Of a DNA stretch of 64,000 nucleotides, positions 941-46,618 are shown in pieces (position 1 is the stretch's first letter; each line of letters begins with the position of its first letter). Location: the NCBI GenBank assembly GCA_000091205.1, contig AP006502.2, one strand, 5' to 3'. The notes beneath the pieces were generated by a model that was not told the origin of the DNA, ran no database searches, and worked only from the letters and a program-made list of their open reading frames with translations. This DNA is from Cyanidioschyzon merolae. Lineage: Eukaryota. The position numbers were made by a program, and so were the translations under genes.

Positions 941-3574
941 ATGGAAGAATCAGTGGGAACGTACGCGACGCTTCATAGTCGACAACCTGCGTTCGTTGGA
1001 GAGCTCGTGAACGCCCGGCAAGTCAGTGCGCACTCGTGGAGACAACGAGCGTCCATTTATTCCAACCGACAGTACGTGTTTGGCCTGCCACACTTTCAGA
1101 ACTTTGCTTCTAAACGAAAGCGAAGTCGTTATTCAGTGTACAGGACGCAATGTGAACCGTGGCGGCAGCCGGGTCCCGCTGAGGCACGCTGGGCCGCGCT
1201 TGCTGGAGCTTGCTCCACCCTGCGCGCTGTGCAGCGCCAGGCTGACTTGCGTGAACCTCCATGCACCGCAACTGAGCCTAACCAAAGAGCGAACGCTTCG
1301 ACCACCAACGGAGAGTGGCGTCCGCGGCTCGTTGTTGTCGGACCTCCGGGTTCCGGCAAAACGACACTAACCGAGCAGTTGCGTCAAGTGTACGGTCTTG
1401 TACGGGTCGGATGCGGCGACCTGCTACGTGCCCACGTTTTATACGGGACGGATATTGGTTTGGCTTCCAAGGCGTATATGGAATCTAACGAACTGGTTCC
1501 AGATGGAATCGTGATACCTCTCGTTCTCGAAAGACTTCGACAACGAGATTGTGAGGAACACGGATGGGTCCTAGACGGATTCCCTCGGACTGAAGCGCAG
1601 GCGCTGGCCTTGTTTGACTTTCTGGATATCGTAGGTGACAGCGCTGATGCAGAAAACTCCAGTCCTTCGATATCCATGGGCGCAAGGCCCGCAGGAACCA
1701 TCATTCTGCTCGAAGCCAGCGATGAGTGTCTCGTGGAACGTATCCGCCATCGCCGCATTGACCCCGTTACCCATACTGTCTACAATATGAAGTTCAATCC
1801 ACCAGAAGAAGAGGATATCATGGAAAGGCTCCTCCGTGTCCCATCGGATGAACCGGAAGCGTTTCGCCTACGCCTGACGCAGTACCGGGAAGCGCTGCCG
1901 GCGCTCCTGGCATGCATTTCCCAGCTGACACGGGCTCGGCGTGGCGATCAAGCGAACAATGTTGGCCTGATTCGTCTGAATGTATCCGAGCCAGGTGTTC
2001 AAGATCGTTTCCAAGAACTTGAGGAGCAACTGAAGCGAATCTGGGGAGCCAAAAGGCGATCCAACCAGTACGCGGAACACATATCCGGTTCGGTCTGGGT
2101 GCCGCATGCCTCGACGGCACTTGCACGAGCGCGAGCGGCAGGATTGCTGAATACGCCCTCCACGCGTACCTTTTCGGACTGGCGTGAGGACCCGGTCGAG
2201 ACCTCACTCAATGGAGGCGCTGGTCAACGCGATCAACTAGGATCGGGCTTGAGTACAGCCCACGCGGACGACGATGCCGTGGAACCGATGCTTGATGGCG
2301 CGTCGATGTCATCTGGCCAAGTGTCGGCAGCGGAGCAAGGTGCCGCGAGCAGTCCAGTTCGTCGATCCAACGACAACGATGCTCCAGAGTTGACGCTGCG
2401 CTCAGATCCCGAGCGAGTAAAAGCGTCACCTCAACCAGTCGATGCCGAAACAGCGAATCGCTCGACGGCGAGCAAGTACGAAAAGGCGTCCATCACTTTG
2501 ATTCGTTGCGACGGTGTTCAGTGCGTTCGCGAAGTTGTTCATCTTGGTGATATCGCTTTTCATGGGAGCGCGACCGAACAAGTAATGCTTCGTTGGAACG
2601 AACGACCTCGAACGGTCCTCTTGCTCGTCAAAAAGGGAGCTAATCTTTGTGAAATAGCGAAGCAAGCGGTGGACTACTTGCAAAACAGCGAACGGCTTCG
2701 AGTGCTCGTCGAGCCCTGGGTCCAGACGGAGCTGTTCGCGCTCGGAACCTATACCGATTCGTTCCATCACAGCCAGGACTTGCACCGCTGCGTCGATCTG
2801 GTAGTTTGTCTCGGTGGTGATGGCCTCATTCTGTACACATCTACCCTATTTCGAACGGCGGTGCCTCCAGTTGCTCCGTTTAACCTTGGATCTCTCGGCT
2901 TTCTGACACCATTCGAATGGAAAGACTTTCAGGGACACATACGTACCATGCTTTCCAGTGATCTTATGCTTTCGCTGCGAATGCGCCTCTTGGCCACGGT
3001 GGTGCGCGTCTCGGGCCAAGCCGAGCAACAGTTTCATGTTCTGAATGAAGTTGTCGTAGACCGGGGAGCTTCGCCTTTTCTCTGCCAGCTGGAGTGTTAC
3101 TGGGATGATGCACCGCTCGCCAGCGTCCAAGCCGATGGGATTATCGTTGCGTCGCCGACCGGATCCACAGCCTACTCCCTCGCCGCCGGTGGTGCTATGG
3201 TGCACCCGAGTGTGCCAGCTATCTGTGTGACGCCGGTTTGCCCGCACTCGCTGGGTCTGAGGCCGGTTGTGCTCCCAGACTCGGCTCGTATTCGAGTCCA
3301 GGTGAGCCCCGAGGCACGCTCCCATGCCTGGGCGAGTTTCGACGGGAAGCACCGGCTGCAGCTGCGGCGCGGGGATTCGCTGCTTGTCGAAATGAGCAAG
3401 TACCCAATGCCGACTGTGAACGCTACTGATCATGCTGCCGACTGGTTTGGTTCTCTGAATCGTGGGTTCGGTTTTAACGTGCGCGGAGCGAAACCGAAAC
3501 CTCGTGTGATGGGGCGCTCCTCCACAGCGGAGCAAGCGAGTGTTGATCGCTTTGCGGACGGCACCGAATCATGA
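941..3574 (+). CDS. Adenylate kinase and NAD(+) kinase fused in one polypeptide (877 aa). The true start may be downstream of the first Met.
   Basis: N-terminal half carries the adenylate-kinase P-loop 'VVVGPPGSGKTTLTEQL', 'LDGFPRT' and a LID-like 'RRIDPVTHTVYN'. C-terminal half carries NAD-kinase motifs 'VVCLGGDGLILYTSTLF', 'NEVVVDRG' and 'DGIIVASPTGSTAYSLAAGGAMVHP'. A single uninterrupted ORF joins them through a low-complexity linker (about 2000-2460). Confidence 0.8.
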   Translation: MEESVGTYATLHSRQPAFVGELVNARQVSAHSWRQRASIYSNRQYVFGLPHFQNFASKRKRSRYSVYRTQCEPWRQPGPAEARWAALAGACSTLRAVQRQADLREPPCTATEPNQRANASTTNGEWRPRLVVVGPPGSGKTTLTEQLRQVYGLVRVGCGDLLRAHVLYGTDIGLASKAYMESNELVPDGIVIPLVLERLRQRDCEEHGWVLDGFPRTEAQALALFDFLDIVGDSADAENSSPSISMGARPAGTIILLEASDECLVERIRHRRIDPVTHTVYNMKFNPPEEEDIMERLLRVPSDEPEAFRLRLTQYREALPALLACISQLTRARRGDQANNVGLIRLNVSEPGVQDRFQELEEQLKRIWGAKRRSNQYAEHISGSVWVPHASTALARARAAGLLNTPSTRTFSDWREDPVETSLNGGAGQRDQLGSGLSTAHADDDAVEPMLDGASMSSGQVSAAEQGAASSPVRRSNDNDAPELTLRSDPERVKASPQPVDAETANRSTASKYEKASITLIRCDGVQCVREVVHLGDIAFHGSATEQVMLRWNERPRTVLLLVKKGANLCEIAKQAVDYLQNSERLRVLVEPWVQTELFALGTYTDSFHHSQDLHRCVDLVVCLGGDGLILYTSTLFRTAVPPVAPFNLGSLGFLTPFEWKDFQGHIRTMLSSDLMLSLRMRLLATVVRVSGQAEQQFHVLNEVVVDRGASPFLCQLECYWDDAPLASVQADGIIVASPTGSTAYSLAAGGAMVHPSVPAICVTPVCPHSLGLRPVVLPDSARIRVQVSPEARSHAWASFDGKHRLQLRRGDSLLVEMSKYPMPTVNATDHAADWFGSLNRGFGFNVRGAKPKPRVMGRSSTAEQASVDRFADGTES

Positions 3575-8498: not shown

Positions 8499-9917
8499 TC
8501 ACCGCTCCGCCGATACACCACTGTTCGTCGCATGCCCAGAGTGCTGAGGATGGGCATGCCCGAGCTGCTGCAGCGCACGCTCCAGAATACGCTTCTTTCC
8601 TATGCGAAAGCGCCGCGCCAGCTCCAATCGCTGGTTGCTCGGCTGCCATTGCTCATCCTCAGTGAGCGTCGTCGGCTTGCGCGCGAGCTCTTCGCGAATC
8701 AGTGCTATCAGACCAGTCGCCGAGAGGTGTTGGACCGACTCTGGATTGCGCACGCGGCCTGTCGCATCGAAAACGATCGTCGTCTCTGAGGCATCGTCCC
8801 AGAGCTTGTACGTGTCGTGCGGGTTATCCTCTTCCACGAATCCGTACAAAGCCAAAAGTTCATCGTTGGTCAAAGTGCCGTACGATATGAAGACCTGATC
8901 GCCTGCATGCGTGTCTCGATTGCTTATGCTGAGCGAAAAAGCATCATAAAAGTACTCATAAGCGACCTTCGATTGGACGCGAGAAGAATGATTGAAGAGA
9001 TCAATGAAAGGTGCAATGACATACTTCTTCAACGGTGCACCCTGCATGGACTGATAAATGCGCGGGTACAGCGCGTCAAATACGAGCTGCGACAAGACCA
9101 CCACCAGAAAGACGTTCAGTGCTGCGAACGCGTCCATGAGATGAAAGTTCCAGCTCGCTAGGGAAAGTGCCCCAGCGAAACACGCCTGACGCCAGCGTTC
9201 ACCGAATGGCGTCGTCTCGGAGGGTCCGCTGAATGCGCGCGTGACAACGACGTTCAACGCCCACTGAAAGTCCTGTTCGCTGAATAAACCTCCTCGCACT
9301 TTCAAATCGATTCCGCCTCGTTCGAATGTCTGCCGCACGAACCGACCATAGAGATCCTTCCATTTTCGTTCCTGCTCGCTGATAGCCCGCAAAAGACAAT
9401 CATACTGGAGCTCCCGACGTTCTGCATCTGTCCAGTACAGAGGCCGCTCGTCAAATGTTGTCGGCAAGAGACGGAACCAGGGCGAAAGTGTGCAGTTAGA
9501 CGCCGATACTTTGGCAGGGCCTCGACGCTGGTTTGGCCGGATCTCCCAGCGCTTTAATTTGCGACGCAAGACAAGAGTCTCTAGCTTTCGAGCAGACTCA
9601 GGATCTGCTTTGTACCGCTCGAAAAGCAACAGAAGCGCGAGACGAGCGTACCAAGGCGCCTGCTTCCAGAACATGGGCGCGCAGACCTCTTCTGGCAGAG
9701 GACAACCTCGTCCGCTATCATCGGAGCGGGTCTGCAACGCCAGAAACCCCGGCACTCGAGCGAGAATCGAACCTGCAGGCAAGGCGGTTTCAGCTCTGAG
9801 GCCGCGTAGGTGCTCGCGGCCAAAGTGCGCAATGCTGAGTTCAGCGGTTTCAATGCCGGCGCCTTTTGCCCACTCCATAAAGCCGACCTCTATGCTATGA
9901 TCATTCAGCGTTGTCAT
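8499..9917 (-). CDS. SET-domain protein-lysine methyltransferase (RBCMT/SETD3/SETD6-like). The ORF track extends to 10634, but the likely start is the Met at 9915-9917 or 10089-10091.
   Basis: 'MEWAKGAGIETAELSIAHF...GSILARVP' N-terminal region. SET core 'FIDLFNHSSRVQSKVAYEY...DTHAGDQVFISYG'. C-terminal Rubisco-LSMT-like substrate-binding region. The upstream 240 codons of the ORF overlap the 3' tail of TnpB-like copy B and look non-coding. Confidence 0.75.
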   Translation of the reverse strand: MTTLNDHSIEVGFMEWAKGAGIETAELSIAHFGREHLRGLRAETALPAGSILARVPGFLALQTRSDDSGRGCPLPEEVCAPMFWKQAPWYARLALLLLFERYKADPESARKLETLVLRRKLKRWEIRPNQRRGPAKVSASNCTLSPWFRLLPTTFDERPLYWTDAERRELQYDCLLRAISEQERKWKDLYGRFVRQTFERGGIDLKVRGGLFSEQDFQWALNVVVTRAFSGPSETTPFGERWRQACFAGALSLASWNFHLMDAFAALNVFLVVVLSQLVFDALYPRIYQSMQGAPLKKYVIAPFIDLFNHSSRVQSKVAYEYFYDAFSLSISNRDTHAGDQVFISYGTLTNDELLALYGFVEEDNPHDTYKLWDDASETTIVFDATGRVRNPESVQHLSATGLIALIREELARKPTTLTEDEQWQPSNQRLELARRFRIGKKRILERALQQLGHAHPQHSGHATNSGVSAER

Positions 9918-10619
9918 ATCTAGCTGTGGCGAATGCCTCGTGGCTTCCCTGGTCCATGTATTCTGCTGGGGTTCCTCGCCCGCTGTACTCCTTTGGTGCT
10001 CGCGCGTGTTGCAGTGTTCGCCGCTTTTTTCTTCGCCCAGCTCTCCCTCTCGAGATAGCGTCGCACGCACGCTGGACCGGAAACGAGTCATCAACCGATT
10101 ACACGGAGAGAGGGCCGGTCCGCTGCACACGGACAACGCCACCGGGCACCGTTGCTGCCACACGGTCGACGGCAGCAGCCACGCAACGGTCATCTGGTCT
10201 GGTTCAGCTCTACCAGAAAACAAAAGCATAGTCCCAGTGAGTGACAACTGATCCGACGCAGCCTCACTCGAAGACGCAATCACACGCGCACCTCGCAAAA
10301 AGCAGAACCGTTCAGTGGACGACAATTTCGGAACGTCGCAGGTCACTGCGAAGCTATGATGCGCTGTGCCGCTGCGCTCCAGAGTTGCAAACACTCGCCC
10401 GTTCTTTCGGGGCGCAGCGTAGCCCGGTGCTCCAGTGTGCTTCCAGAGGTCCTTCTTGTACGTCTGAAACGTTTCTACGAAACCACTGAACAGCTTTCTA
10501 TCGTCCAACACGAAACTCAGGAGCTTCAGTCCTTGAGCGAACGAGCATGAGCTTCGTGCTCGCGAGCAGTTCGAGATAGGACGTTTTGGATCAAACGAGG
10601 ATCCGTCGCTGAGTTCGCG

Positions 10620-10730
10620 CACCCCTGGAAGCAAACGCCTTTCGAAAGTCGAACAACAGCGGTGTACAGTAGTGGCGGCAAACGCGCCCTAGACAAGAAG
10701 TCTCCAACCGAGATGCAGACGCCTCCCAGG
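10620..10730 (-). ncRNA. Candidate omega-RNA-like scaffold: conserved 3' tail of copy B
   Basis: Aligns base-for-base with 7500-7600, 'ggtggccggtc.aaa...ggaggcgtctgca...gttggagac...gtctagggcg...gccactactgtacac'. Confidence 0.3.
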
Positions 10731-12880: not shown

Positions 12881-13923
12881 GGCGAATTGTTTATCAAAAA
12901 CGTCTTCTATCGATCTTCGAAACCAACGTGCTGCTTCCTCTGTGCGGCACGGGGCGTACGCTATGCGCTTTTCTGCTGATTGACAGCGGAAGCGACGAGT
13001 CCGGTTACTGCCTTGAAGACTTAGACGCTTTGGAGAGACCATCACGTGGATTGTTTCAGTTTTCTGACCTCCTCCTAACCACCACGCTCGGCTCTCTGTT
13101 GCAATGGCACGCGCAGCAGCTCTCATGGCAGCCAAAGCTGAACCCGGGCATCGAGAGAGTGGAAAGCTGCATCAAAGGTGGCGCAAAGCCAAGGAAGCCG
13201 GTCATCTAAGCAAGCTTGCATCGCCTGCAGAGCTGCGAGCACTCGTCCAAGCGAAACTGACACCCGAGGAGCAAGAGCGTTTCGGGATGCAGTGTGCAGG
13301 GCTGGCCGCCAAGGCACTTGAGGTACTCGACAAGTCGCTTACATCTTTAGAGCAAGACATAGAGAGCGAGTCGTGTGACTGGGAAATAGAATCGGACGCT
13401 GCTATGGACCGTGTTGCGAGACGATTCCTTGCCGATCTCGAACAGCTAAAGCAGACTGGCAGCACGCGTCGACTCACCCAACTCAGTATTTGGCGTCGCA
13501 TCAGTCGCTATGTCTTACTGGCGGAAAGGCGAGCATGAACTGCAGGCTGAAGGCAGTCCTTTTGTGAGGCAAGTCGCGAAGATCGCGGACCAGGCATCCA
13601 AGACTCCGGAATACCGCCAGGTCGTTGCCTGCGGGCATCTGGAAGAGCTCGCAGATGCGGCAACTGCAGATGGTGTATTCGGTTCGCAGTCGCGGTCGAT
13701 GTCACGTATCTTACGTCGCCCAGAAAGTCGGTTTCGACTCTTGCTCACGAAACTAGAGCTTGGTGAGGAGCTCTGCACACGCGACGAGCGGCGTTTGATG
13801 CTGGCATTGGATACCTCTGATGCGAGACTTGAACCCGAACGCATGCGCTCGAAGAAGAGGGCACCTGGTGGAGCGCAGGATGGCGCCTCTGCAAAGCGCG
13901 ACCACGGGAGGTCTGCATCCGTT

Positions 13924-13948
13924 TCGTCGTCGTCGTCGTCGTCGTCGT
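13924..13948. repeat. (TCG)8 microsatellite
   Basis: Direct reading. Confidence 0.9.
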
Positions 13949-15067
13949 TAGAGCCAGAGCACGAGGACGACGTGCACCCAGCGGCCAAGAACGCGTCTTC
14001 CGCGAGAAAGAAAAGACGACATCATCGGCGACGATCATCCAACAAAAACGAAACCCTGGAGAATCCTCAGTAAGCTAGCATTTGAGCGAGATTGCTGCCG
14101 AATCATCGCCGTGCCCTGGCCCTGTGGATATCGCATGATGCATCGTTTACAGCGTTTCACCCATGATACCGGGTGGTGATTATCGCCGCCGGAATACCTC
14201 AGGAATAGATCGCGGATCGTTGGAGGCTACGCTCGCGTCCATCGCGTGTACCATGTGCTGCAAAAGTGGTGCTTGTCTGCAGCTCCACAAAGAGCACATG
14301 ATCGCGTGCTGTGCTGCGAGCACCACGGCGCCGGCCTCTGTCGGCAAACGCGCTCAAAGGCGTACTCGCGACAAGCATGAATTCAGCAGGAATATTGGCG
14401 CTGGTTGAGGCACTACGACTGACTATCGAGAGACCAGTCTCAGCAACCGCAGCATGCGTCGATCACTGGGGCGCAGCTTAAACTCCAGCAGCGATGCGGC
14501 CGTGTCAGAGCCAGACCTGCAGACTAGTGGACAGAGCGCAGCATGCCTCATTCTGGATTTCGCAGAAGTACCCGCCAGAGACGCTTTTCAGGGTAGCCAG
14601 TGGCGGATCGCGTCTATTTCGCTACCGGGAATTCGGACGGATTCCGCGTCCAGTCGACCGGGGACGGTTCACGCTTTCCACTCGGACGTCAACGCGTTTC
14701 ACTTTGGCGATGAAGGTGCTGCATTCATCCACCGACCAGTCTGCATGACGATTCGACGAACATGGGGCGGAACCTTTGATGCATACCTCTGGAGCATGAT
14801 TCGCAGAGGTGTACTTTTTTGCAGGTCGTCGAGGTGGAGCGTGTGGCGAGAGCCACATATTTGAGCGACCTCGCACCGGGCGTGATCCAAGACACCATTC
14901 GGCTGATGCTCAAGCGTGCCTCGCGTACCCGACATGTCGTTGCTCACCTTCGTGATGCTGGTGTGCTTCTGTGGGTAGCGCACTTGCGCCCGTTTGCGAA
15001 GCGTAGCGGACCTTGAGGACAAGTGGCACGCTCCAGCAGCCATGCGCTTGCATAGGTCATGCATTCA

Positions 15068-18000
15068 TCATGTGATGCTTTCCAAAGCAGCACCTAGGGC
15101 GTGGTCATCAAACACGTCGTGGAAATCCCAGAACTGTACATTCCAGCGGGGGTGGTAGCGTCGACACCAGCGCTCAAACCCCTGGATATATGCGGGTCGC
15201 AGGTGCGCATCCAAAGAGTTCCGGAACGCCACCATGGACTCCTCGATGATCGAGGGATCCATGAGAATGCTCCCCGACAACGGATCCAGCATCACCTTGA
15301 CCGGAACATGCTCATAACCCCAGAAAGGCAGTTTCGTCACGATATCGCCGACCGCTGCCCATCGGAATGAAAACGGCACATGTCGCTGGAACGCTGCGGC
15401 GAAAGCGCGATTCCCGACTCGAGGCGACCCAAAAGTCACACTCATCACCAGATCCGATGACAGACGCAACGACTGTGAATTCTCAAAACACGTCATATCG
15501 AGGGCAGCGATGGTTGCCAGGGCCCCGCCGAGAGAGTGACCGCAAAAGATCACCGGTTTGTGGTTGCAAGATGCACTATCCAAGGAGTTCATCGCACTAC
15601 ACGGTTGCGCTTCGCTCGCATCTGCTGCTGCTGCTGCTGCTGCTGTAGCAGTTTCGCTTCGACACCGCGCTGCGGTCTCTCTACCCACTAAGCTCAGCTG
15701 CTGTTGCTGCTGCCCGTGTTCACAACCGCCATGAATATCTGCACTGGACACCTTGGGAAAGCGGTTCGATGGTTGCACGCGCCTATCCAGGCTGGTAGCG
15801 ACACCACAAGTGGCATCGCCGCAGGTGCTGCTCAAGGGCGCGCAAGCCGCATCCACTGCGGTTGGTGCAGTGCTCGAGGGCTTCGCAACAAGCGGTTTCA
15901 GCGTCTCCATTAACTCTTCACGCACGGATAAATAGGCGTGCAAAAATCCACCGTGCACCATTGAAGGCAATCGTCGCCCTATGAGATACGAAAAATCGTC
16001 ACCAGCCTGAGCGCGAAAATCACCAAAGCGCAGGGAACGGATCCCGCGTACGCTCAGCATATACTGCCACCATCGTCGATGTGCAAAACGGCCTCCAGGA
16101 TCTAAACCGAGTTCCTGTGACAGGGCATCATCAAGACCGCGCTCTATATCCGAATCGTCCTTGGCAAAGGCCTCCACTGATGCCTGGTGCTTCCTAGTCG
16201 AATCTATTTCGCGCTTGCTGTGTGTTGCGGGCGGTATTTGCGAACAAGTCGCAGCCGAGGTGCCGCTACGCCCGGCAGCCAAGGCAGTGGTGCTTACAGC
16301 ATTCGTCGTACGAGGCATTCGAGTTGTACCGTCGACAGTCGCTTTCGCCGGTGACTCCCGCAACGACCCGCGTTGACCGTGTTTGCTGCAGGCGCTCAAG
16401 CGCCACGTATCCTGTATTTGCGGACATTCACGTGCATGCAGGTGCTCCTCGAGAGGAACCCGTCGGACATTCATATCTGTGCGTAAATTTCTGGTGCTTT
16501 TGGTACCGCGAAAGCTCACCACAATCCTATCCGCCAAGTCAATGACGAGCACATGTACATCTGTAACGGCGCTGGAGATATGCCGCACGACTCGTGCTTG
16601 CAGGGGGTCCATTTCGCCCACACCATAATGATTGAACATCTCTGCATACATATGCGGGTCATGCCACGGTCGATAGGACAGGTACGCCATGTTGAAGATC
16701 AAAACATGCGTCTCGAGGACAAGTGAGCGCGAGAGCCAGCTGTCTCCATTTCGCAGTGCTTCCTGCTCAGTCTGGTAGTAGAGGTTTGCTTTGCGCAGCT
16801 CTCGCTCTGCATCCAGTGCGTCCGCTGGCCACGGTGCCGCCTGGCTGGCGCTGTGCGCGGACAACTCCCACTCGGAGGAAACGCTCCTTTGTGGGGCTCG
16901 CTTTTCTTGATATGCAGCTGGGTCCGGAGCCAGCGCAACGATCCAGGGCAGCCAAACACCCAGCACTGTCGGAGGTAAATGCACATAGAGCAGGAGCACC
17001 GACCATGTAAAGAGCATCGCGAAGGCACCACCATTGAATCGTGCAATACCCAGCAACCGCAACGGTACGCCATCGAGGGACGCGTTCGCGCTGGGTAATG
17101 GTACCAGGCCCACTGCGATGGTATCGTTTGCAATCAGGAATATATAGGATATCGCAGTAAAGACACGGTAGAAACGAGCACCCATTTGTTTGTGATGACA
17201 ACAGGTATACGGCAGCTGCTGGAGCACTCGGAAGGTGCGGTAGAGCTCCATGGCAATCCAACCATCGAGGAAAATGCGCATGGTAACCACGAGCGCAAAC
17301 GTAAGCGAGTAGGCCACTTGTTGTTGGTGTCCACGCATAGCAAACTGAACCAACATGCCCGGCCAGGTGAGTCCTAACGCCGTTCGAGACCAGCCGCAAA
17401 TGGCTGTCTCCACGGCGGCGATGATCAAACAGAGACCAAATACCACGCGGTTTCGTTCTAGAAACGTGTGGCGATCCTTAATATCACGATAAAGTCGTAG
17501 AATAGCCATGGCGTGTCCATAAAAACCAAATATCCAGAACCATTGCCAGACCAGGTCGGAGACATAGAGAATGGCAATCGTGGTGCCGCTCGCTTCCGAT
17601 ATCGTTCGTGCAATATTGCCTATAATATTCATCGTAAAGAATATAAATAGACCTTGTAGGAAGCAGCTGCGCATTTCGAAGGTGCAACGGATCCATCCAT
17701 ACCGATAGAGACGCAAAAAGTAGACGATCGTGAAAGTAAGCTGGAGCACGCAAAAGCAGTACACGACGACGCGGTCAACGAGGTTGAGTGCCGGGAGTGC
17801 CGCTTCGAAACGGCGTGCAAACAGACTCATTGCTAGCGTGTAGGTGACGGAGAGCACGATTGCACTGCATAAGTTGAGAATTTGCCAAGTTACCTGCTTC
17901 GAGGATAGCGTCTCAAGGAGGAACTTGGCTTCCTTTGGATCGCTTCGAATCTGTGGTGGAGCAAAGAAACTCGACAAACGACTGCGGTGACGTGCACTGC

Positions 18001-18133
18001 TTCGACGTGTGCGCGTGCCTCGTTCCTGTCCATTGATGAGTTCGCTGCTGCCTCTTAGCGTGCTGTCTCCAAATGTCTCCGACTCGAACGACGAGACGGA
18101 GGTACCACGAGCAGCCATGAGGGCAGCGTGCAA
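15068..18133 (-). CDS. Polytopic membrane domain (about 7-8 predicted TM helices) fused to a class-3 (fungal-type) lipase domain. Architecture resembles sn-1 diacylglycerol lipase but with more TM segments.
   Basis: N-terminal 400 aa contain repeated hydrophobic stretches ('LNLCSAIVLSVTYTLAMSLF', 'VVVYCFCVLQLTFTIVYFL', 'LFIFFTMNIIGNI', 'LVWQWFWIFGFYGHAMAIL', 'VVFGLCLIIAAVETAI', 'YSLTFALVVTMRIFLDGWI', 'AISYIFLIANDTIAVGLV', 'AFAMLFTWSVLLLYVHL'). The lipase_3 core has 'VVSFRGTKSTRNLRTD' and the nucleophile elbow 'VIFCGHSLGGALATIAAL'. Confidence 0.75.
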   Translation of the reverse strand: MHAALMAARGTSVSSFESETFGDSTLRGSSELINGQERGTRTRRSSARHRSRLSSFFAPPQIRSDPKEAKFLLETLSSKQVTWQILNLCSAIVLSVTYTLAMSLFARRFEAALPALNLVDRVVVYCFCVLQLTFTIVYFLRLYRYGWIRCTFEMRSCFLQGLFIFFTMNIIGNIARTISEASGTTIAILYVSDLVWQWFWIFGFYGHAMAILRLYRDIKDRHTFLERNRVVFGLCLIIAAVETAICGWSRTALGLTWPGMLVQFAMRGHQQQVAYSLTFALVVTMRIFLDGWIAMELYRTFRVLQQLPYTCCHHKQMGARFYRVFTAISYIFLIANDTIAVGLVPLPSANASLDGVPLRLLGIARFNGGAFAMLFTWSVLLLYVHLPPTVLGVWLPWIVALAPDPAAYQEKRAPQRSVSSEWELSAHSASQAAPWPADALDAERELRKANLYYQTEQEALRNGDSWLSRSLVLETHVLIFNMAYLSYRPWHDPHMYAEMFNHYGVGEMDPLQARVVRHISSAVTDVHVLVIDLADRIVVSFRGTKSTRNLRTDMNVRRVPLEEHLHARECPQIQDTWRLSACSKHGQRGSLRESPAKATVDGTTRMPRTTNAVSTTALAAGRSGTSAATCSQIPPATHSKREIDSTRKHQASVEAFAKDDSDIERGLDDALSQELGLDPGGRFAHRRWWQYMLSVRGIRSLRFGDFRAQAGDDFSYLIGRRLPSMVHGGFLHAYLSVREELMETLKPLVAKPSSTAPTAVDAACAPLSSTCGDATCGVATSLDRRVQPSNRFPKVSSADIHGGCEHGQQQQQLSLVGRETAARCRSETATAAAAAAADASEAQPCSAMNSLDSASCNHKPVIFCGHSLGGALATIAALDMTCFENSQSLRLSSDLVMSVTFGSPRVGNRAFAAAFQRHVPFSFRWAAVGDIVTKLPFWGYEHVPVKVMLDPLSGSILMDPSIIEESMVAFRNSLDAHLRPAYIQGFERWCRRYHPRWNVQFWDFHDVFDDHALGAALESIT
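15621..15644. repeat. (CTG)8 microsatellite inside the lipase ORF (poly-Gln on the minus strand)
   Basis: Direct reading. It encodes 'QQQQQQ' within 'CEHGQQQQQLSLVG'. Confidence 0.9.
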
Positions 18134-23330: not shown

Positions 23331-24467
23331 ATGGACTCTGGATGGTATGAGCGCTCGCTGGACCCTTTCGGAACTCGTCTGCTATGGAAGCGAACACGTG
23401 CATCCGCGGGTATCGAGTTCGAGGCATTGATCCAAAGTCGTATGAATCGCGGCCAGTCGGAGGCCACGTGGCCGCGCATCCACGCGTTGCTTGCTCGAGC
23501 GTTGCTCCGAGCCCAGCTTGTCGCTGGATATACCCGTGCGGAACACCCGCTTCGAAACCTAGGACGCGTTGGAAGCGAGTCTGGGACTCTGCAGACGCCT
23601 CCTGCGTGCTTTCCTGGGTCGTTCGAAGCGATCTTGGTAGAAATGGCAACGCTTACCCCAACGGAAGAGTCTACCAGTGCCCGCAGTCTTCGTCGTGACT
23701 TTCGGAATACCTTTCGACACCTCGCTGCCGCGCTTTTTGCAGCTGTTTTATCGGCTTGTGCCGACCATCTGCATCAGTGGAGCCTATTTCCGGTCTCAGT
23801 TTCGAAACTGGTCTCTGTTGGAGTCTACGCATCAAGCTGGCTTGTATACTCCTGGCAATGCAGCAGGAAGCCACAGAGGCTTACTTCGCGGCTTGTTTCG
23901 ACAACGTCGCAACGCCGAGAACTCGCAACCATTGTGGTCCACCGAGCCGGGGAAAGCTTTGGACACACGGCAATGGTTGCCGGACTATTCATACGAACTG
24001 CCTCCTACCGGATCATTCTAACTTATTTCGTGATCGAATACGTGGCAACCTGGGCAGGGTTCAGCGTTTGGATCTCGGGACCTCGCTATGCTCCCACGAC
24101 ACCGAATGAAAGCTCGCAAGAGACCAGGCTTGAAAAGGCACCGGCACGCCAGCGAGTATGGCGGCTTTTGGAGTTTTTGAATGGACCCCATGCCCTAGGT
24201 GTAACCCTCGGATGGGTGCTCCCATTCGTGCTCGTGACGTATTGCACTTTTCGAGCGACGCGCGTGTCACCGACCGTGCATTCGTCCTCCATGATGGCGG
24301 AATTGAGCGCCATCGGGCTCTGGCAATCCGCTCGCATGCGTATCGCAGAGTGGCTGATGTTTGTCGCAGGCGCAGCGCATATGCTATGTATATGCGGCAA
24401 CGTTCTCATCACCACAATATATCTTGCAACCGTGGAGCCAGATTCCCGGCAGTCGAAGAAAGCGTAG
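23331..24467 (+). CDS. Hypothetical multi-pass membrane protein
   Basis: A 378-aa ORF with several hydrophobic segments ('LAAALFAAVLSACA', 'VSVGVYASSWLVYSW', 'IILTYFVIEYVATWAGFSVWI', 'ALGVTLGWVLPFVLVTYC', 'WLMFVAGAAHMLCICGNVLITTIYL'). No recognisable motif. Confidence 0.3.
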   Translation: MDSGWYERSLDPFGTRLLWKRTRASAGIEFEALIQSRMNRGQSEATWPRIHALLARALLRAQLVAGYTRAEHPLRNLGRVGSESGTLQTPPACFPGSFEAILVEMATLTPTEESTSARSLRRDFRNTFRHLAAALFAAVLSACADHLHQWSLFPVSVSKLVSVGVYASSWLVYSWQCSRKPQRLTSRLVSTTSQRRELATIVVHRAGESFGHTAMVAGLFIRTASYRIILTYFVIEYVATWAGFSVWISGPRYAPTTPNESSQETRLEKAPARQRVWRLLEFLNGPHALGVTLGWVLPFVLVTYCTFRATRVSPTVHSSSMMAELSAIGLWQSARMRIAEWLMFVAGAAHMLCICGNVLITTIYLATVEPDSRQSKKA

Positions 24468-41763: not shown

Positions 41764-44142
41764 ATGCTCGCGTGTCCAGGGGCAGCTCGGGGAGAACGCC
41801 GCACCGTCAGCGACGACGCACCGTCGCCGCGGCGCGATCAGCGCACCGTTTCGCGTCGGAACATTCGCCGCGTGGGGCCGGCAGCGCGCGCCTCTCCTTC
41901 GCGCTCCATGCATCGTGGCGTCGCCATCCCTGCGACTGTCCAGCCACGCTCCTATCTTTGCATTGTGTTGCGTGGAGCACGTATGGTCGAGCCGTCTGTG
42001 GTGTGGTGGTGCCTGGTGGAAGCGCTCAAGCGACGCTTACTCCGTCAACAGCGCTGGCAGTTATGGCTCCTGGTCGTGGGCCTTTTCCTTCTTTGTACGA
42101 TACGCCCAAGGATGCAGAGTGTTCTGGATGCCGCCAGTAAGGAACCCGGGTCCCTACTGGATCCGAATCCAATGTATATTCCTGCGTGGGACGCACAAAC
42201 CGGTGCGGTGCTAACAGCTTTTGATCCTCAGAGGCACCTCCTGCCGTTCCACTTCATTGCATGCTCTTCAGATGACTGGGGCCGCATCGCGGATAGCGTC
42301 CCACTATTTCGCGACTCGCATGCACGTCAGGAGTTTCTGGCCGTGGCGTCTGAGGAGCTGAAGCGTTCACTGCGCCAGACCGACTGGTCCATGGCAACCG
42401 TAGAAACCGTGCGTGATCTGCAGCGACTCCACGAGTTCCTACTTCGCCTGCAGGAGGCTGCAGGAGAACCGCGTCAGCGTTTCGTGCTGTCACCCATGTG
42501 GGTTGTCGGCGGACCCGACATCCCCGCCATGCAAAACCAGCTCGATATCAAACGGGAAGGCAGCACCGGGCCGCTGCGTGAACGATCATCTGACGCCCAG
42601 CTCTGGGTGGACGCTCGCGTCCAGCGCGCAGCTGCGACCCCGGAACGCCGGGGTCGCATGCGTCTGGTACAGCGGTCGCCTAGGGAGAGATGGCGAAACA
42701 GTCGCCAGCGGCTGCATGAAACGCATGCCGAGTATCCGCAGCCGGGTGTCGGGCAGCGCTCCACGGACCCCGTGGGCGAAACGCGGCGCGCTGGGGTAAC
42801 TTTGCAACGCCCTGATTCCCTGAAGAGGTTCACGGGCCAATCGTCGACGTGGGGATTGCTGACGCGGCCGGTCGTACCTACAGACGCACAGGCTGTACAC
42901 GCTGCACCAACAGGTTTCCCCTATCGAAGCATGTACATGTGCCGGCTTTCACGAAACGGTGCATCAATACTTCCAGGCCGCGATCTGATCGAATCCATTG
43001 AGGTTGCCGAATGGTACCGTAAGCTGTGGTACGATCGCGTGTGGGCACCTCAGTTCCACGGCAGCGCCCATATCCATCCACATCGCTGGCTCGAAGCGCT
43101 CGAGCGGACACGACCTCTGCGGCGACAACGAAGCACTGCAAGGACGCGAATTATTCGCAGCGCCTACGACAGCCTCCGTGAAGGCTACGTCTACGCGGGA
43201 AACATCACCGCTCTGCGTTCTGAGTTCGCGGATGGCGCTTGGTCACCGGCAAGCCTACGAAAAGGCATTGAGACATTTGCAGGGTTTTGGGGTTATCGAC
43301 CGCGGGTTATGAGCTCGCCGCATAACACCTGGACGCCGTCGTTCGTCCAGCATCTCGTTGCGAGTCATGCAGTCTTTGGCATCGATGCTGGCACTGGTCA
43401 ATGTGCGACGCTCGTGATTCCAAACGCGACTCAGCGCTCCGTTTCATGCATCGATCGTGAACCGTGGGATACGTTCGCGGGGCGTGCCGCGCGTCTCGAT
43501 GCGCGCATGCCACTCATCCAGGAGCGGATTGCGGCGTTGAGGCCGGGATTTACGAGCCTCGCCTGGCACGCACAGAATGCACTGAGCGCGACGACATCGC
43601 CCCGGGTGGCTGCTGCGCACCTGGAGCATCTGGAAACGTTTGTGCATTGGGTACAGCGCCAGAATCATACTGTTTTCGTGACATCCAATGAACTTCATCA
43701 AATTCGTTTGCGTGGATGGAGCCTCGAGGTATGGCCAGATGCATTCGTTTATCGAAATTTTCTCCCATACGACATACTCGTATTGGTTCCGTGCCTTGAG
43801 GACATGTTCTCAGGAGCTTCGCCATGGGAAGCAGCGCCTTTACGCGTCGTCCGGCTTGATCAGCGTCTCATCCGCGCTCCGATCTCACAGTCGAGTCCCG
43901 AACTGACGCAGTGCCGACCCTGGTCGGCACTGATGGCGGATTCACAGCACGGGCATGCACTGCCTCGGAGCTTACGATACATTCAGCGGCAGAAGCAGAA
44001 ACGGAAGCAGCTTGCCGCCACTCCGGCCTTTCGAGGTTGTCGCTGTCAGCGCATTCGATTGCCCTCGTTTATGGATGATGGCGTCCTTCTTCTGCCAGGC
44101 AACAGTCATTGGATCGAGGTTCGGCGCCTGTCGCACGAGTGA
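41764..44142 (+). CDS. Large hypothetical protein (792 aa) with an N-terminal hydrophobic segment
   Basis: A long uninterrupted ORF with a hydrophobic region 'WQLWLLVVGLFLLCTI' near residue 100. No motif recognised. Confidence 0.35.
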   Translation: MLACPGAARGERRTVSDDAPSPRRDQRTVSRRNIRRVGPAARASPSRSMHRGVAIPATVQPRSYLCIVLRGARMVEPSVVWWCLVEALKRRLLRQQRWQLWLLVVGLFLLCTIRPRMQSVLDAASKEPGSLLDPNPMYIPAWDAQTGAVLTAFDPQRHLLPFHFIACSSDDWGRIADSVPLFRDSHARQEFLAVASEELKRSLRQTDWSMATVETVRDLQRLHEFLLRLQEAAGEPRQRFVLSPMWVVGGPDIPAMQNQLDIKREGSTGPLRERSSDAQLWVDARVQRAAATPERRGRMRLVQRSPRERWRNSRQRLHETHAEYPQPGVGQRSTDPVGETRRAGVTLQRPDSLKRFTGQSSTWGLLTRPVVPTDAQAVHAAPTGFPYRSMYMCRLSRNGASILPGRDLIESIEVAEWYRKLWYDRVWAPQFHGSAHIHPHRWLEALERTRPLRRQRSTARTRIIRSAYDSLREGYVYAGNITALRSEFADGAWSPASLRKGIETFAGFWGYRPRVMSSPHNTWTPSFVQHLVASHAVFGIDAGTGQCATLVIPNATQRSVSCIDREPWDTFAGRAARLDARMPLIQERIAALRPGFTSLAWHAQNALSATTSPRVAAAHLEHLETFVHWVQRQNHTVFVTSNELHQIRLRGWSLEVWPDAFVYRNFLPYDILVLVPCLEDMFSGASPWEAAPLRVVRLDQRLIRAPISQSSPELTQCRPWSALMADSQHGHALPRSLRYIQRQKQKRKQLAATPAFRGCRCQRIRLPSFMDDGVLLLPGNSHWIEVRRLSHE

Positions 44143-44644: not shown

Positions 44645-46134
44645 ATGTCTGCATGCGGATGCACCACTCTGCGCACCAGAGAACAGGGTGCCGGATCGAA
44701 TCGCCTGCAGCGCCGCAGATGCACCACACGAAGAAGTCGTGACCCGCCGGCGCGGTACGAGCGCACTACGCGCAGCATTCGAGCAGCGCTGTTGTGCACC
44801 AGCGTTGACGACTGCCAGAACACTCTTCCGGAAAACCTATTCCACAATCAGAACACGAGGCAGTCGCTTAAAATAATGCTTACTTTCGAAGCGTTTGTAG
44901 CGGGTGCTATCTGGGATATTGAGCGCAATGGCTCGTGGCTGGCACCGCGCTGGCGCCGGTCAAGCGTGAAGCGTCGGGCGCCGTTGGGGCAGCGCCCGCC
45001 CGTGAGCGGAACCCGGAACTTGGCGGGAAAAGAGCCAAGCGGACCAGCACGGTCGGAGGGTCCTTTCTTTACCTCCAAATGGGGACGCTCCGAGAGCAGT
45101 CAAGCGGGATCTCAGGCCGGTGCAGGTCGCCAAAAGTTCTTGAACAAGAGCGAGCGCGTTCCCGAGCCGCTCGAAGACCCACTGTTCGAGTCACTGCTGG
45201 GACCGGAGCCCGCTGAGAAGCGCAGCAAACACAAGTCTTCAAAGAAACAGTCCGTAGACAGGCTGGTGCGAGGAAAGCAAAAGTACTTTTTCGAAGGCGC
45301 AGTATCTGAGACGGAAGCGTACAACATGTTTGCGAACTTGCTAGAGAGCGAGTCGCTCACGCAATATGCTGCCCGTGCAGAGGTCGAATGGTTCGATGCG
45401 AAGCGCCTTGAGGCAGCGTCTAAGAATAGGCGTGGATTCCCCTCCGTTGGCGAGATCCAGGACCTCCTGTACGATGAACTCATCGACACCGACGGCAAAC
45501 GGTGGCGCGAGACCGTTGTGCCATCGGACAATCGCGTGCTCCTTGTCTTGTTTCAGGTTTCCCCGATTGACGTGGAATTTCCCAGATACTTGGAACATTT
45601 TCACGCTGCGTTAAATCTGACGCCAACGGATGCTATCCATTTGATCGCGGTTTCGCGGGAGAAGCCATCAACGAATCGCAAAACGATGCGCAAGCTGAAC
45701 TTACGCTTTCCGCTTTTGAGCGATGAGCAGGGTGCACTTGGTGCGCTTTTTGGGACAGGAAATAAGCCCCATATGTTGATTTTCTATCGAGAGAAAACGC
45801 CGAGCGGCATCGAGGGTTGGTTCTTCGATCGCTGTGCGCGCGCCGAACTACCCAGCAAACTTTTGGAGAACACCGTTGACTATGCCCGCAAGCTAGTTGC
45901 CCAACGATTGCAGGCGAGCATGCGGGCAAAGCAGAATCCGACGAGCACCGGCGCCAGAGCGGCTGGCACTGATTCCGTTGCGAACACAGGAATGCAACCG
46001 GTGCCGCCGGGACCAGGTGCGTCACGCTCGCCGCAGGCCGCTGGTGCCCAGGCGACGTCCACGTCGACCGCGGGTGCCGCAGCACCAGAGCGCAGGATCG
46101 GACAGAATCCTCCGGCAGCAGGGCGCACTGAACT

Positions 46135-46165
<31 letters not shown>

Positions 46166-46618
46166 AGCGGTGCCTCTGCATCGACACCAACCGCTGCCGA
46201 GAGACTCTCTGCGGCATCGAAAGCGGTACCGCTGGCAGATCGAACGTCTTCGACACCCGCAGCAGCGGGTCGCGGCACCGTATCAAAAAACGAGGCCAGG
46301 GCGCGGCTCGTGCTTAATCACTCAACACACTTGGAAGGCCTCATTAGCGTTTTAGAGCGGCTGGCGGTCTATGAAAGCATTCGCAAAATCGTTCCAGGAA
46401 GACTTTACACGGCACGGAGCAATGCAGAGCGCTTGAGCATTCGCGTCACCGTGCCTGTCGCTGGAGGTTGGAAGCTTGTCGCTCGCAAGGGAACGCAAGT
46501 TCAGGATGTGTTCGTTACCCTGGAAAGTCCCTCAAGCGCGTATGCAGTGGCCCACCAGAGATCCATTTTATCAAAGGAGCAATTGCAGCGACTCGTCGAC
46601 GAGGCCATTGCGGCCTGA
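44645..46618 (+). CDS. Protein with a redoxin/AhpC-TSA-like thioredoxin-fold domain (catalytic Cys absent) and a C-terminal low-complexity region including poly-Gln. The true start is probably downstream, for example the Met near 44875.
   Basis: 'VVPSDNRVLLVLFQVSPIDVEFPRYLEHFHAALNLTPTDAIHLIAVSREKPSTNRKTMRKLNLRFPLLSDEQGALGALFGT...HMLIFYRE' has the layout of a peroxiredoxin/BCP domain. The position of the peroxidatic Cys carries 'VSP'. 'QQQQQQQQQQQ' at 46132-46165. Confidence 0.45.
46132..46165 (+). repeat. (CAG)11 microsatellite (poly-Gln) within the ORF
   Basis: Direct reading. Confidence 0.9.

Follow-up and report, generated by a model that had tools for sequence, protein, structure and literature searches.

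What kind of membrane domain has been joined to the lipase encoded at positions 15068-18133 of a stretch of Cyanidioschyzon merolae DNA (64,000 nucleotides of contig AP006502.2, hereafter the window)? A preliminary description, made from the letters of the window, had noticed a minus-strand open reading frame (ORF) with some seven or eight hydrophobic helices ahead of a class-3 lipase and had suggested a receptor-coupled, diacylglycerol (DAG) lipase-like signaling enzyme. The ORF is the gene CMT151C. We propose, with a probability of about 0.65, that its product is a lipase of the endoplasmic reticulum (ER) membrane, in which an eight-helix domain highly diverged from the Wntless-like transmembrane (TM) domain is followed by a class-3 lipase facing the cytosol.

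Identity of the gene and reality of the fusion

In the open-reading-frame list, ORF 15068-18133 (-) counts 1021 residues from an upstream TTG, the length given in the preliminary description; its first ATG, at 18118, opens a product of 1016 residues. This product is letter for letter BAM83148.1 (XP_005539184.1; UniProt M1VMD2) of C. merolae 10D, and the 10D genome likewise matches, without a difference, the neighboring ORFs for ALG2, MetAP, and a DEAD-box helicase. The database label of XP_005539184.1 is "similar to triacylglycerol lipase." The primers published for CMT151C by Mori et al. (2016) map uniquely to 18099-18118 (-) and 17831-17850 (+) and span 96 codons; the CMT151C entry of their primer table gives "96" and "1016" (PMC4928187 supplement). 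Because the published primers map onto the ORF, we assigned it this locus tag. The ORF is CMT151C, a single-exon gene carried on a 1,621,617-bp chromosome and listed among only eight putative triacylglycerol (TAG) lipases of C. merolae (PMC4928187 supplement). The gene itself is not new: it is already annotated and has been covered by a localization survey.

The preliminary description had considered that the N-terminal half might belong to a separate gene joined by a read-through artifact. This is ruled out by conserved single ORFs in the orthologs. The fusion is one ORF in Cyanidiococcus yangmingshanensis (KAK4529157.1, 963 residues), in Cyanidium caldarium (KAK4537769.1, 1041 residues), and in a third lineage, represented in metagenomes and in NCBI (P0024, 964 residues). 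Since it is a single ORF in these three further Cyanidiophyceae lineages and is collinear with the oomycete proteins described below, the fusion of membrane domain and lipase is real. Synteny extends to the downstream gene in a metagenome contig of 98 kb (L001), and a word-indexed search with full-length CMT151C returned three clusters only. Among the three close orthologs, the membrane domain is 68-71% identical; the inserts of the lipase half barely align, and the linker between the two halves is poorly conserved. When near-identical alleles are compared, the ratio of nonsynonymous to synonymous polymorphism (pN/pS) in the membrane domain is ~0.16, a value drawn from only 9 differences.

Some gene models of these orthologs are incomplete. 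One annotation splits the C. yangmingshanensis gene (P0002 cluster) into KAF6005539.1 (529 residues) and KAF6005540.1 (259 residues), and the EukProt model of the Cyanidium gene (P0029, 543 residues) lacks the whole membrane domain that is present in KAK4537769.1. Such truncated models would hide the membrane-plus-lipase architecture from database searches.

The membrane half has eight helices

A Kyte-Doolittle scan over 19 residues gives eight separate hydrophobic peaks, at residues 78-101, 111-135, 148-170, 178-200, 221-243, 265-292, 318-341, and 358-381. Both AlphaFold models that we computed have eight long helices at the same positions, as assigned by DSSP. The earlier count of seven to eight can thus be set at eight, and the anchor does differ, as had been remarked, from the four-TM type of the mammalian sn-1 DAG lipases (DAGL). 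The loop between TM1 and TM2 is only 9 residues long, so CMT151C has no luminal domain. Just ahead of helix 1, the N-terminal tail ends in the motif PQIR...LETLSS. The coding sequence and the features of the membrane half are as follows.

15068..18118, minus strand: complete coding sequence of CMT151C, 1016 residues plus stop (15068-15070), no intron; exact match to XP_005539184.1, primer mapping
17888..18118, minus strand: N-terminal tail, residues 1-77, Arg-rich, predicted cytosolic; 13 Lys + Arg in the tail
16976..17887, minus strand: eight-helix membrane domain, residues 78-381; hydropathy, AlphaFold helices, ortholog identity, similarity to oomycete WLS-like_TM
17816-17887, minus strand: TM1; hydropathy, as for all helices
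17714-17788, minus strand: TM2
17609-17677, minus strand: TM3
17519-17587, minus strand: TM4
17390-17458, minus strand: TM5
17243-17326, minus strand: TM6
17096-17167, minus strand: TM7
16976-17047, minus strand: TM8
16799..16975, minus strand: end of the last helix (VHLPP) and weakly conserved linker, residues 382-440; VHLPP is invariant in the red-algal and oomycete proteins

Oomycete proteins suggest a distant link of the membrane half to the Wntless-like domain

The oomycete relatives of CMT151C were found because the search used the lipase domain with its inserts removed. The 120 best matches to this domain are Lipase_3 proteins of Cyanidium, oomycetes, other protists, and cyanobacteria, and some of them are longer protist proteins with N-terminal membrane domains of their own. 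The Pfam family PF06664 (WLS-like_TM, "Wntless-like, transmembrane domain"; 247 profile positions) is matched by P0037 (41.9 bits), P0151 (37.3 bits), and P0153 (44.2 bits) above its cut-off of 28.3 bits. P0037 is a fragment of the 911-residue Bremia lactucae protein XP_067818331.1 (P0196), which itself matches PF06664 with 40.6 bits over profile positions 13-245 and then continues into Lipase_3. The layout of the full-length oomycete proteins is that of Wntless, namely, helix 1, a luminal domain of ~225 residues, and seven helices, with the lipase behind.

CMT151C aligns collinearly with the Bremia protein. BLASTP pairs residues 224-383 of its membrane domain with residues 433-593 (E = 3e-8), then the N-terminal part of the lipase (2e-6), the VHxGF segment, and the lipase core (6e-19); against the oomycete proteins that match PF06664, the E values are 2e-7 and 3e-8. 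As decoys, we used sequences shuffled within 15-residue windows, which preserves the composition of the helices, with 1800 of them in the profile test. Smith-Waterman comparison with four oomycete membrane domains gave z scores of 5-13.7 above the shuffles. A profile built from three orthologs ranked all nine of nine oomycete domains above every one of the 1800 shuffles, and with Cyanidium added, the four-sequence red-algal profile scored the nine at 11.5-25 bits, against a shuffle maximum of 8.6. After the same addition, hhalign gave an E value of 1.1e-4 over 269 columns, nearly the entire domain.

Furthermore, the red-algal and oomycete helices align one to one in MAFFT. They share two motifs: LPY-x5-(K/R)Q-x3-RF, located in the loop that follows helix 6, and (V/M)HLPP, where helix 8 ends. 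The PQIR...LETLSS motif before helix 1 is present in Phytophthora and Bremia as well, although it is weak when taken alone (E = 0.11). Judged by these comparisons, the membrane half appears to be a highly diverged member of PF06664, distant but statistically supported. Its assignment to the Wntless-like domain looks previously unrecognized: in a literature search, we found no paper assigning the CMT151C membrane domain and none on Wntless-like membrane domains fused to lipases. The combination of WLS-like_TM with Lipase_3 is already in databases for oomycetes; the red-algal variant, which lacks a GOLD domain, is new.

Three other protist Lipase_3 proteins of the same subfamily, P0034 (a Telonema subtile transcript), P0038, and P0096, have fewer or truncated helices. 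Their last membrane helix ends in a related (Y/F)(L/A)PP motif. The lipase family seems to reach beyond red algae and oomycetes.

Topology, localization, and fold

Lysine and arginine are more abundant in the N-terminal tail and the even-numbered loops (2, 4, and 6) than in loops 1, 3, 5, and 7. On the basis of this charge pattern, the Arg-rich tail, and the eight helices, both termini are predicted to be cytosolic, as in Wntless. A green fluorescent protein (GFP) fusion of the first 96 residues of CMT151C was seen in the ER, and three predictors had pointed to the plastid or other sites (Mori et al. 2016, PMC4928187, Suppl. Table 3); the gene is entered there among the putative TAG lipases. 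The fused residues correspond to the tail and helix 1. The label "TAG lipase" is by homology only.

The WLS fold offers a point of comparison for the membrane half. Helices 2-8 of WLS have a G protein-coupled receptor (GPCR) fold with a lipid-accessible cavity (PMC8316347), and WLS, TMEM181, and TMEM87A belong to the GOST group of seven-helix proteins with a GOLD domain (PMC9711517). In both WLS and TMEM87A, the cavities are occupied by lipid and open to the membrane (PMC8316347, PMC9711517). A first AlphaFold run on CMT151C, with three sequences, had a predicted local distance difference test score (pLDDT) of 42.7 and was unusable for the fold. With a 13-sequence alignment, the mean pLDDT was 54 and the predicted template-modeling score (pTM) was 0.51, with most membrane helices at ~60-80. 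This low-confidence model resembles seven-helix proteins, namely, rhodopsins, TMEM87A, and GPCRs. Rhodopsins score as high against it as TMEM87A, WLS falls outside the top 60, and the best Foldseek matches are GPCR structures at non-significant E values (≥0.16). The model is consistent with a GOST-type fold, but it is too uncertain, and the seven-TM (7TM) fold too generic, for proof.

The lipase half is complete but interrupted by two inserts

Pfam Lipase_3 (PF01764) matches CMT151C with 82.2 bits, against a cut-off of 22, and the C-terminal half alone with 84.5 bits in 3 stretches. The landmarks follow in order: IVVSFRGT at residue 536, VHGGF at 721, GHSLG at 860-864, GDIV at 924, and DAHL at 970. 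The domain had been described as complete with its GHSLG nucleophile elbow. All parts are indeed present, but they do not form one uninterrupted domain, since two inserts of ~115 residues (566-680) and ~106 residues (746-851) break it up. Because of this interruption, a single-stretch Pfam alignment is limited to profile positions 57-138. Insert 1 is placed after the lid position, and insert 2 is placed before the nucleophile strand. The Q/A-rich low complexity reported earlier was found as well, as QQQQQ at residues 803-807 and AAAAAAA at residues 826-832; the poly-Ala run is coded at 15622-15645 by eight perfect copies of a trinucleotide. That both inserts are lineage-specific, low-complexity, and poorly conserved is well supported.

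Solved lipases of Rhizopus, Rhizomucor, and Thermomyces match CMT151C across VHxGF, GHSLGG, and the catalytic Asp with E values of 1e-13 to 1e-11. The GHSLG pentapeptide is invariant in the orthologs, where the next residue is G or A. Asp925, in GDIV, falls in the alignment on the RDIV motif of both 6a0w and 5tgl, and we take it to be the catalytic Asp by analogy to the Rhizomucor lipase. His972 was assigned by motif, not by structural superposition: it belongs to a His-x3-Tyr motif present in all homologs inspected. The triad Ser862-Asp925-His972 is thus apparently intact, as far as alignment and motif can tell. The features of the lipase half are as follows.

16424..16798, minus strand: residues 441-565, beginning of the lipase fold with the strand IVVSFRGTKS and the stretch at the lid position; aligns with 6a0w residues 78-120 and with Cyanidium and oomycete lipases
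16079..16423, minus strand: insert 1, residues 566-680, A/S/T-rich, poorly conserved; composition, ortholog alignment
15884..16078, minus strand: residues 681-745, middle of the lipase fold, containing VHGGFLHAY; aligns with VHxGF of Rhizomucor and related lipases
15566..15883, minus strand: insert 2, residues 746-851, rich in A/S, contains QQQQQ and the poly-Ala run; composition
15071..15565, minus strand: C-terminal lipase core, residues 852-1016; Pfam Lipase_3, alignment with solved lipases
15527-15541, minus strand: GHSLG; motif
15533-15535, minus strand: putative catalytic Ser862; alignment with solved lipases
15344-15346, minus strand: putative catalytic Asp925; alignment with solved lipases
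15203-15205, minus strand: putative catalytic His972; His-x3-Tyr motif

Weighing the reading and its alternatives

A number of results weigh against an ER lipase with a Wntless-like domain. By direct sequence search, the membrane half is an orphan: residues 60-405 match no Pfam family, PF06664 included, even at E ≤ 10, and the membrane domain alone matches nothing in NCBIfam. PDB sequences match the membrane-domain profile at chance level only (for example, herpesvirus gL, E = 0.018), and Wntless is not matched when PDB sequences are compared with a combined red-algal and oomycete profile. With the three-sequence profile, HMMER was run exhaustively against 1.84 billion cluster representatives and matched the profile's own clade only. 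As there is no direct match, the link from the red alga to WLS takes two transitive steps, from alga to oomycete and from oomycete to PF06664; the first hhalign, with fewer sequences, gave an E value of 0.009 and a probability of 4.5%. The luminal domain that defines the GOST group is absent from CMT151C. The ER localization is based on the 96-residue GFP fusion only, and the literature searched reports no enzyme assay for CMT151C. Finally, the cavity of WLS and TMEM87A faces the luminal leaflet and the lipase is predicted to be cytosolic, so a direct hand-over of substrate is not obviously possible.

One alternative, which we consider possible but unlikely, is a true receptor-enzyme, in which the seven-helix domain acts as a sensor for a ligand or membrane lipid and switches the lipase by allostery. 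Conservation of the membrane domain equals that of the catalytic core and far exceeds that of the inserts, which a mere anchor would not need; the fusion has been retained between red algae and oomycetes; and the lipid-filled, membrane-open cavities of WLS and TMEM87A, together with the likeness of our model to 7TM receptors, would fit such a role. However, no GPCR or other 7tm receptor family in Pfam is matched by the sequence of the membrane domain, which was the search proposed in the preliminary description, and the cargo-engaging luminal domain of WLS is missing. Moreover, the GOST members Wntless and TMEM87 are not known as signaling receptors, and the structural study of TMEM87A speaks against its being a GPCR or a channel (PMC9711517). 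What stands of the receptor-like anchor proposed earlier is the distant relation to Wntless-like domains and a low-confidence 7TM-like model; nothing in the evidence points to signaling, and a "receptor-coupled DAG-lipase-like signaling enzyme" is speculation.

A little less likely still is a lineage-specific polytopic anchor unrelated to Wntless-like domains, whose similarity to them would reflect TM composition and whose 7TM-like model would reflect AlphaFold bias. The missing Pfam match, the exhaustive search that stayed within the clade, the weak first hhalign, and a low-confidence model with non-significant Foldseek matches and with rhodopsins level with TMEM87A are all as this explanation would have them. 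It does not account for similarity that exceeds all local, composition-keeping shuffles in both directions, for matches that are collinear with an adjacent and clearly homologous lipase domain, or for LPY..KQ..RF, HLPP, and PQIR..LETLSS at equivalent positions.

The Lipase_3 set into which CMT151C was clustered presumably includes the Arabidopsis DAGL-like genes AT3G14075 and AT4G16070. We regard as improbable the remaining explanation, a DAGL-type sn-1 DAG lipase with a role in lipid signaling whose anchor expanded from four to eight helices: CMT151C does share with DAGL a membrane-anchored, predicted cytosol-facing Lipase_3 with an insertion within the catalytic domain and was placed by comparative-genomics clustering in that heterogeneous set (PMC4928187 supplement), but it has eight helices instead of four, its membrane domain resembles the oomycete WLS-like_TM domains, its Pfam matches are limited to Lipase_3 and general alpha/beta-hydrolase families, and no DAG lipase appears by name among the 120 best lipase-domain matches. 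Nothing in these comparisons ties CMT151C to DAGL, and the earlier comparison is a functional analogy at most.

Proposed function and its meaning

CMT151C is built, in order, of an Arg-rich tail predicted to be cytosolic, eight TM helices, a short linker, and a class-3 alpha/beta-hydrolase lipase. With the N terminus inside and eight helices, the lipase would be placed at the cytosolic surface of the ER. Its substrates there would be glycerolipids (TAG, DAG, or phospholipid) within or at the membrane, whose acyl esters it would hydrolyze. The membrane domain would anchor the enzyme and may also bind lipid in a membrane-open cavity like those of WLS and TMEM87A. Because it is strongly conserved and its fusion to the lipase persists in two distant eukaryotic groups, we suggest that it is more than an anchor.

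A bolder extension, which we offer only tentatively and think rather doubtful, is that the Wntless/TMEM181-type seven-helix domain is ancestrally a membrane-lipid-binding module, here wired to a lipase as a gate that senses or presents lipid for hydrolysis. The fusion would then be a "Rosetta stone" to a lipid-handling role of GOST proteins (TMEM181, TMEM87A/B, GPR107/108, GPR180, and TMEM145) that preceded Wnt secretion. If the relationship is true, a fold best known as the animal chaperone of lipidated Wnt occurs in Wnt-less protists, joined to a lipid-hydrolyzing enzyme, and gives a testable hint at the original role of the seven-helix cavity. Since C. merolae has a haploid, almost intron-free genome that can be altered by homologous recombination, CMT151C is a practical entry point for such tests. 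As one of the eight listed putative TAG lipases, CMT151C is also relevant to algal lipid engineering.

Alleles and other observations in the window

Environmental alleles of the gene (locus L003, JGI 3300053653) are 97-98% identical to CMT151C and carry disabling changes. One change is a frameshift caused by a 2-nt GA insertion at 17596/17597, in the stretch that separates helices 3 and 4. One codon ahead of GHSLG, TGC (Cys859) is changed to TGA at 15542-15544; three listed cluster members (P0001, P0014, and P0016) end at this TGA, and other members retain Cys. The disabled alleles suggest either a gene that some wild strains can do without or errors in the assemblies. A selenocysteine reading of the TGA is unlikely because the same contig also carries the frameshift. 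The poly-Ala repeat at 15622-15645 varies by allele as well: L003 has one unit fewer and P0014 several more, and P0014 and P0016 differ.

The window has ~55% GC, carries genes on both strands, among them one for a class-II DAHP synthase, and gave no matches in Rfam and tRNA scans. These traits fit nuclear DNA of C. merolae; a kinetoplastid or apicomplexan origin, which the composition might have suggested, is rejected because of the genes on both strands, the DAHP synthase, and the exact protein matches to 10D. The ORFs 13104-13538 (+) and 13510-14073 (+), which overlap in different frames, jointly match one 347-residue gene of L001 (13826-14869), so either there is a frameshift near 13531-13538 in this genome or the gene structure differs. 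An 877-residue ORF at 941-3574 (+) joins an adenylate kinase domain (132-323) to a complete NAD kinase (559-827), an unusual fusion. The 657-residue ORF at 44645-46618 (+) combines a weak AhpC/TSA match (24.5 bits, below the 26-bit cut-off) with a DUF2103 metal-binding domain. Pfam matches nothing in ORFs 8499-10634, 23331-24467, and 41764-44142.

Comparison with known systems

The fungal class-3 lipases (Rhizomucor miehei 4TGL, Rhizopus 6A0W, and Thermomyces 1DT3) share with CMT151C the fold, FRGT, VHxGF, GHSLGG, and the catalytic Asp. Unlike CMT151C, they are soluble, have ~270 residues, and contain neither a membrane domain nor long inserts. DAGL alpha and beta are membrane-anchored Lipase_3 enzymes with a four-helix anchor and a cytosol-facing catalytic domain that contains an insertion. 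The anchor of CMT151C is of a different kind; we set the two apart by this description of DAGL and by the names of the best matches to CMT151C.

Wntless has an N-terminal helix ahead of a seven-helix bundle, the latter typical of the GOST proteins; CMT151C likewise has eight helices, which may be arranged in this way. The sequence link to them is transitive, by way of PF06664; neither Pfam nor the profile search of PDB sequences gave a direct match between CMT151C and WLS. They differ in their luminal GOLD domain, and no animal GOST protein has a C-terminal enzyme. No Wnt cargo is to be expected in a red alga.

Within the Cyanidiophyceae, Cyanidiococcus KAK4529157.1 is 59% identical to CMT151C overall and likewise has eight helices and a lipase without a luminal domain. 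Cyanidium KAK4537769.1, with ~39-42% identity in the two main matches of the lipase core, has the same eight helices and lipase and also lacks the luminal domain, but its helix 2 is followed by an additional loop, and its C terminus is extended. The inserts of these orthologs are unlike those of CMT151C in sequence and length.

Nearest to CMT151C outside this group are the uncharacterized oomycete proteins with WLS-like_TM and Lipase_3, such as Bremia XP_067818331.1 and Phytophthora palmivora PHPALM_12921. Identity in the membrane domain is only ~20-28%. The oomycete proteins have a luminal domain of ~225 residues and match PF06664 directly, whereas CMT151C has a 9-residue loop and no direct match, and the two long low-complexity inserts in the lipase are on the algal side. 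The order of parts is the same in both: PQIR/LETLSS, helix 1, seven helices up to VHLPP, a linker, and a Lipase_3 domain with GHS(L/M)GG.

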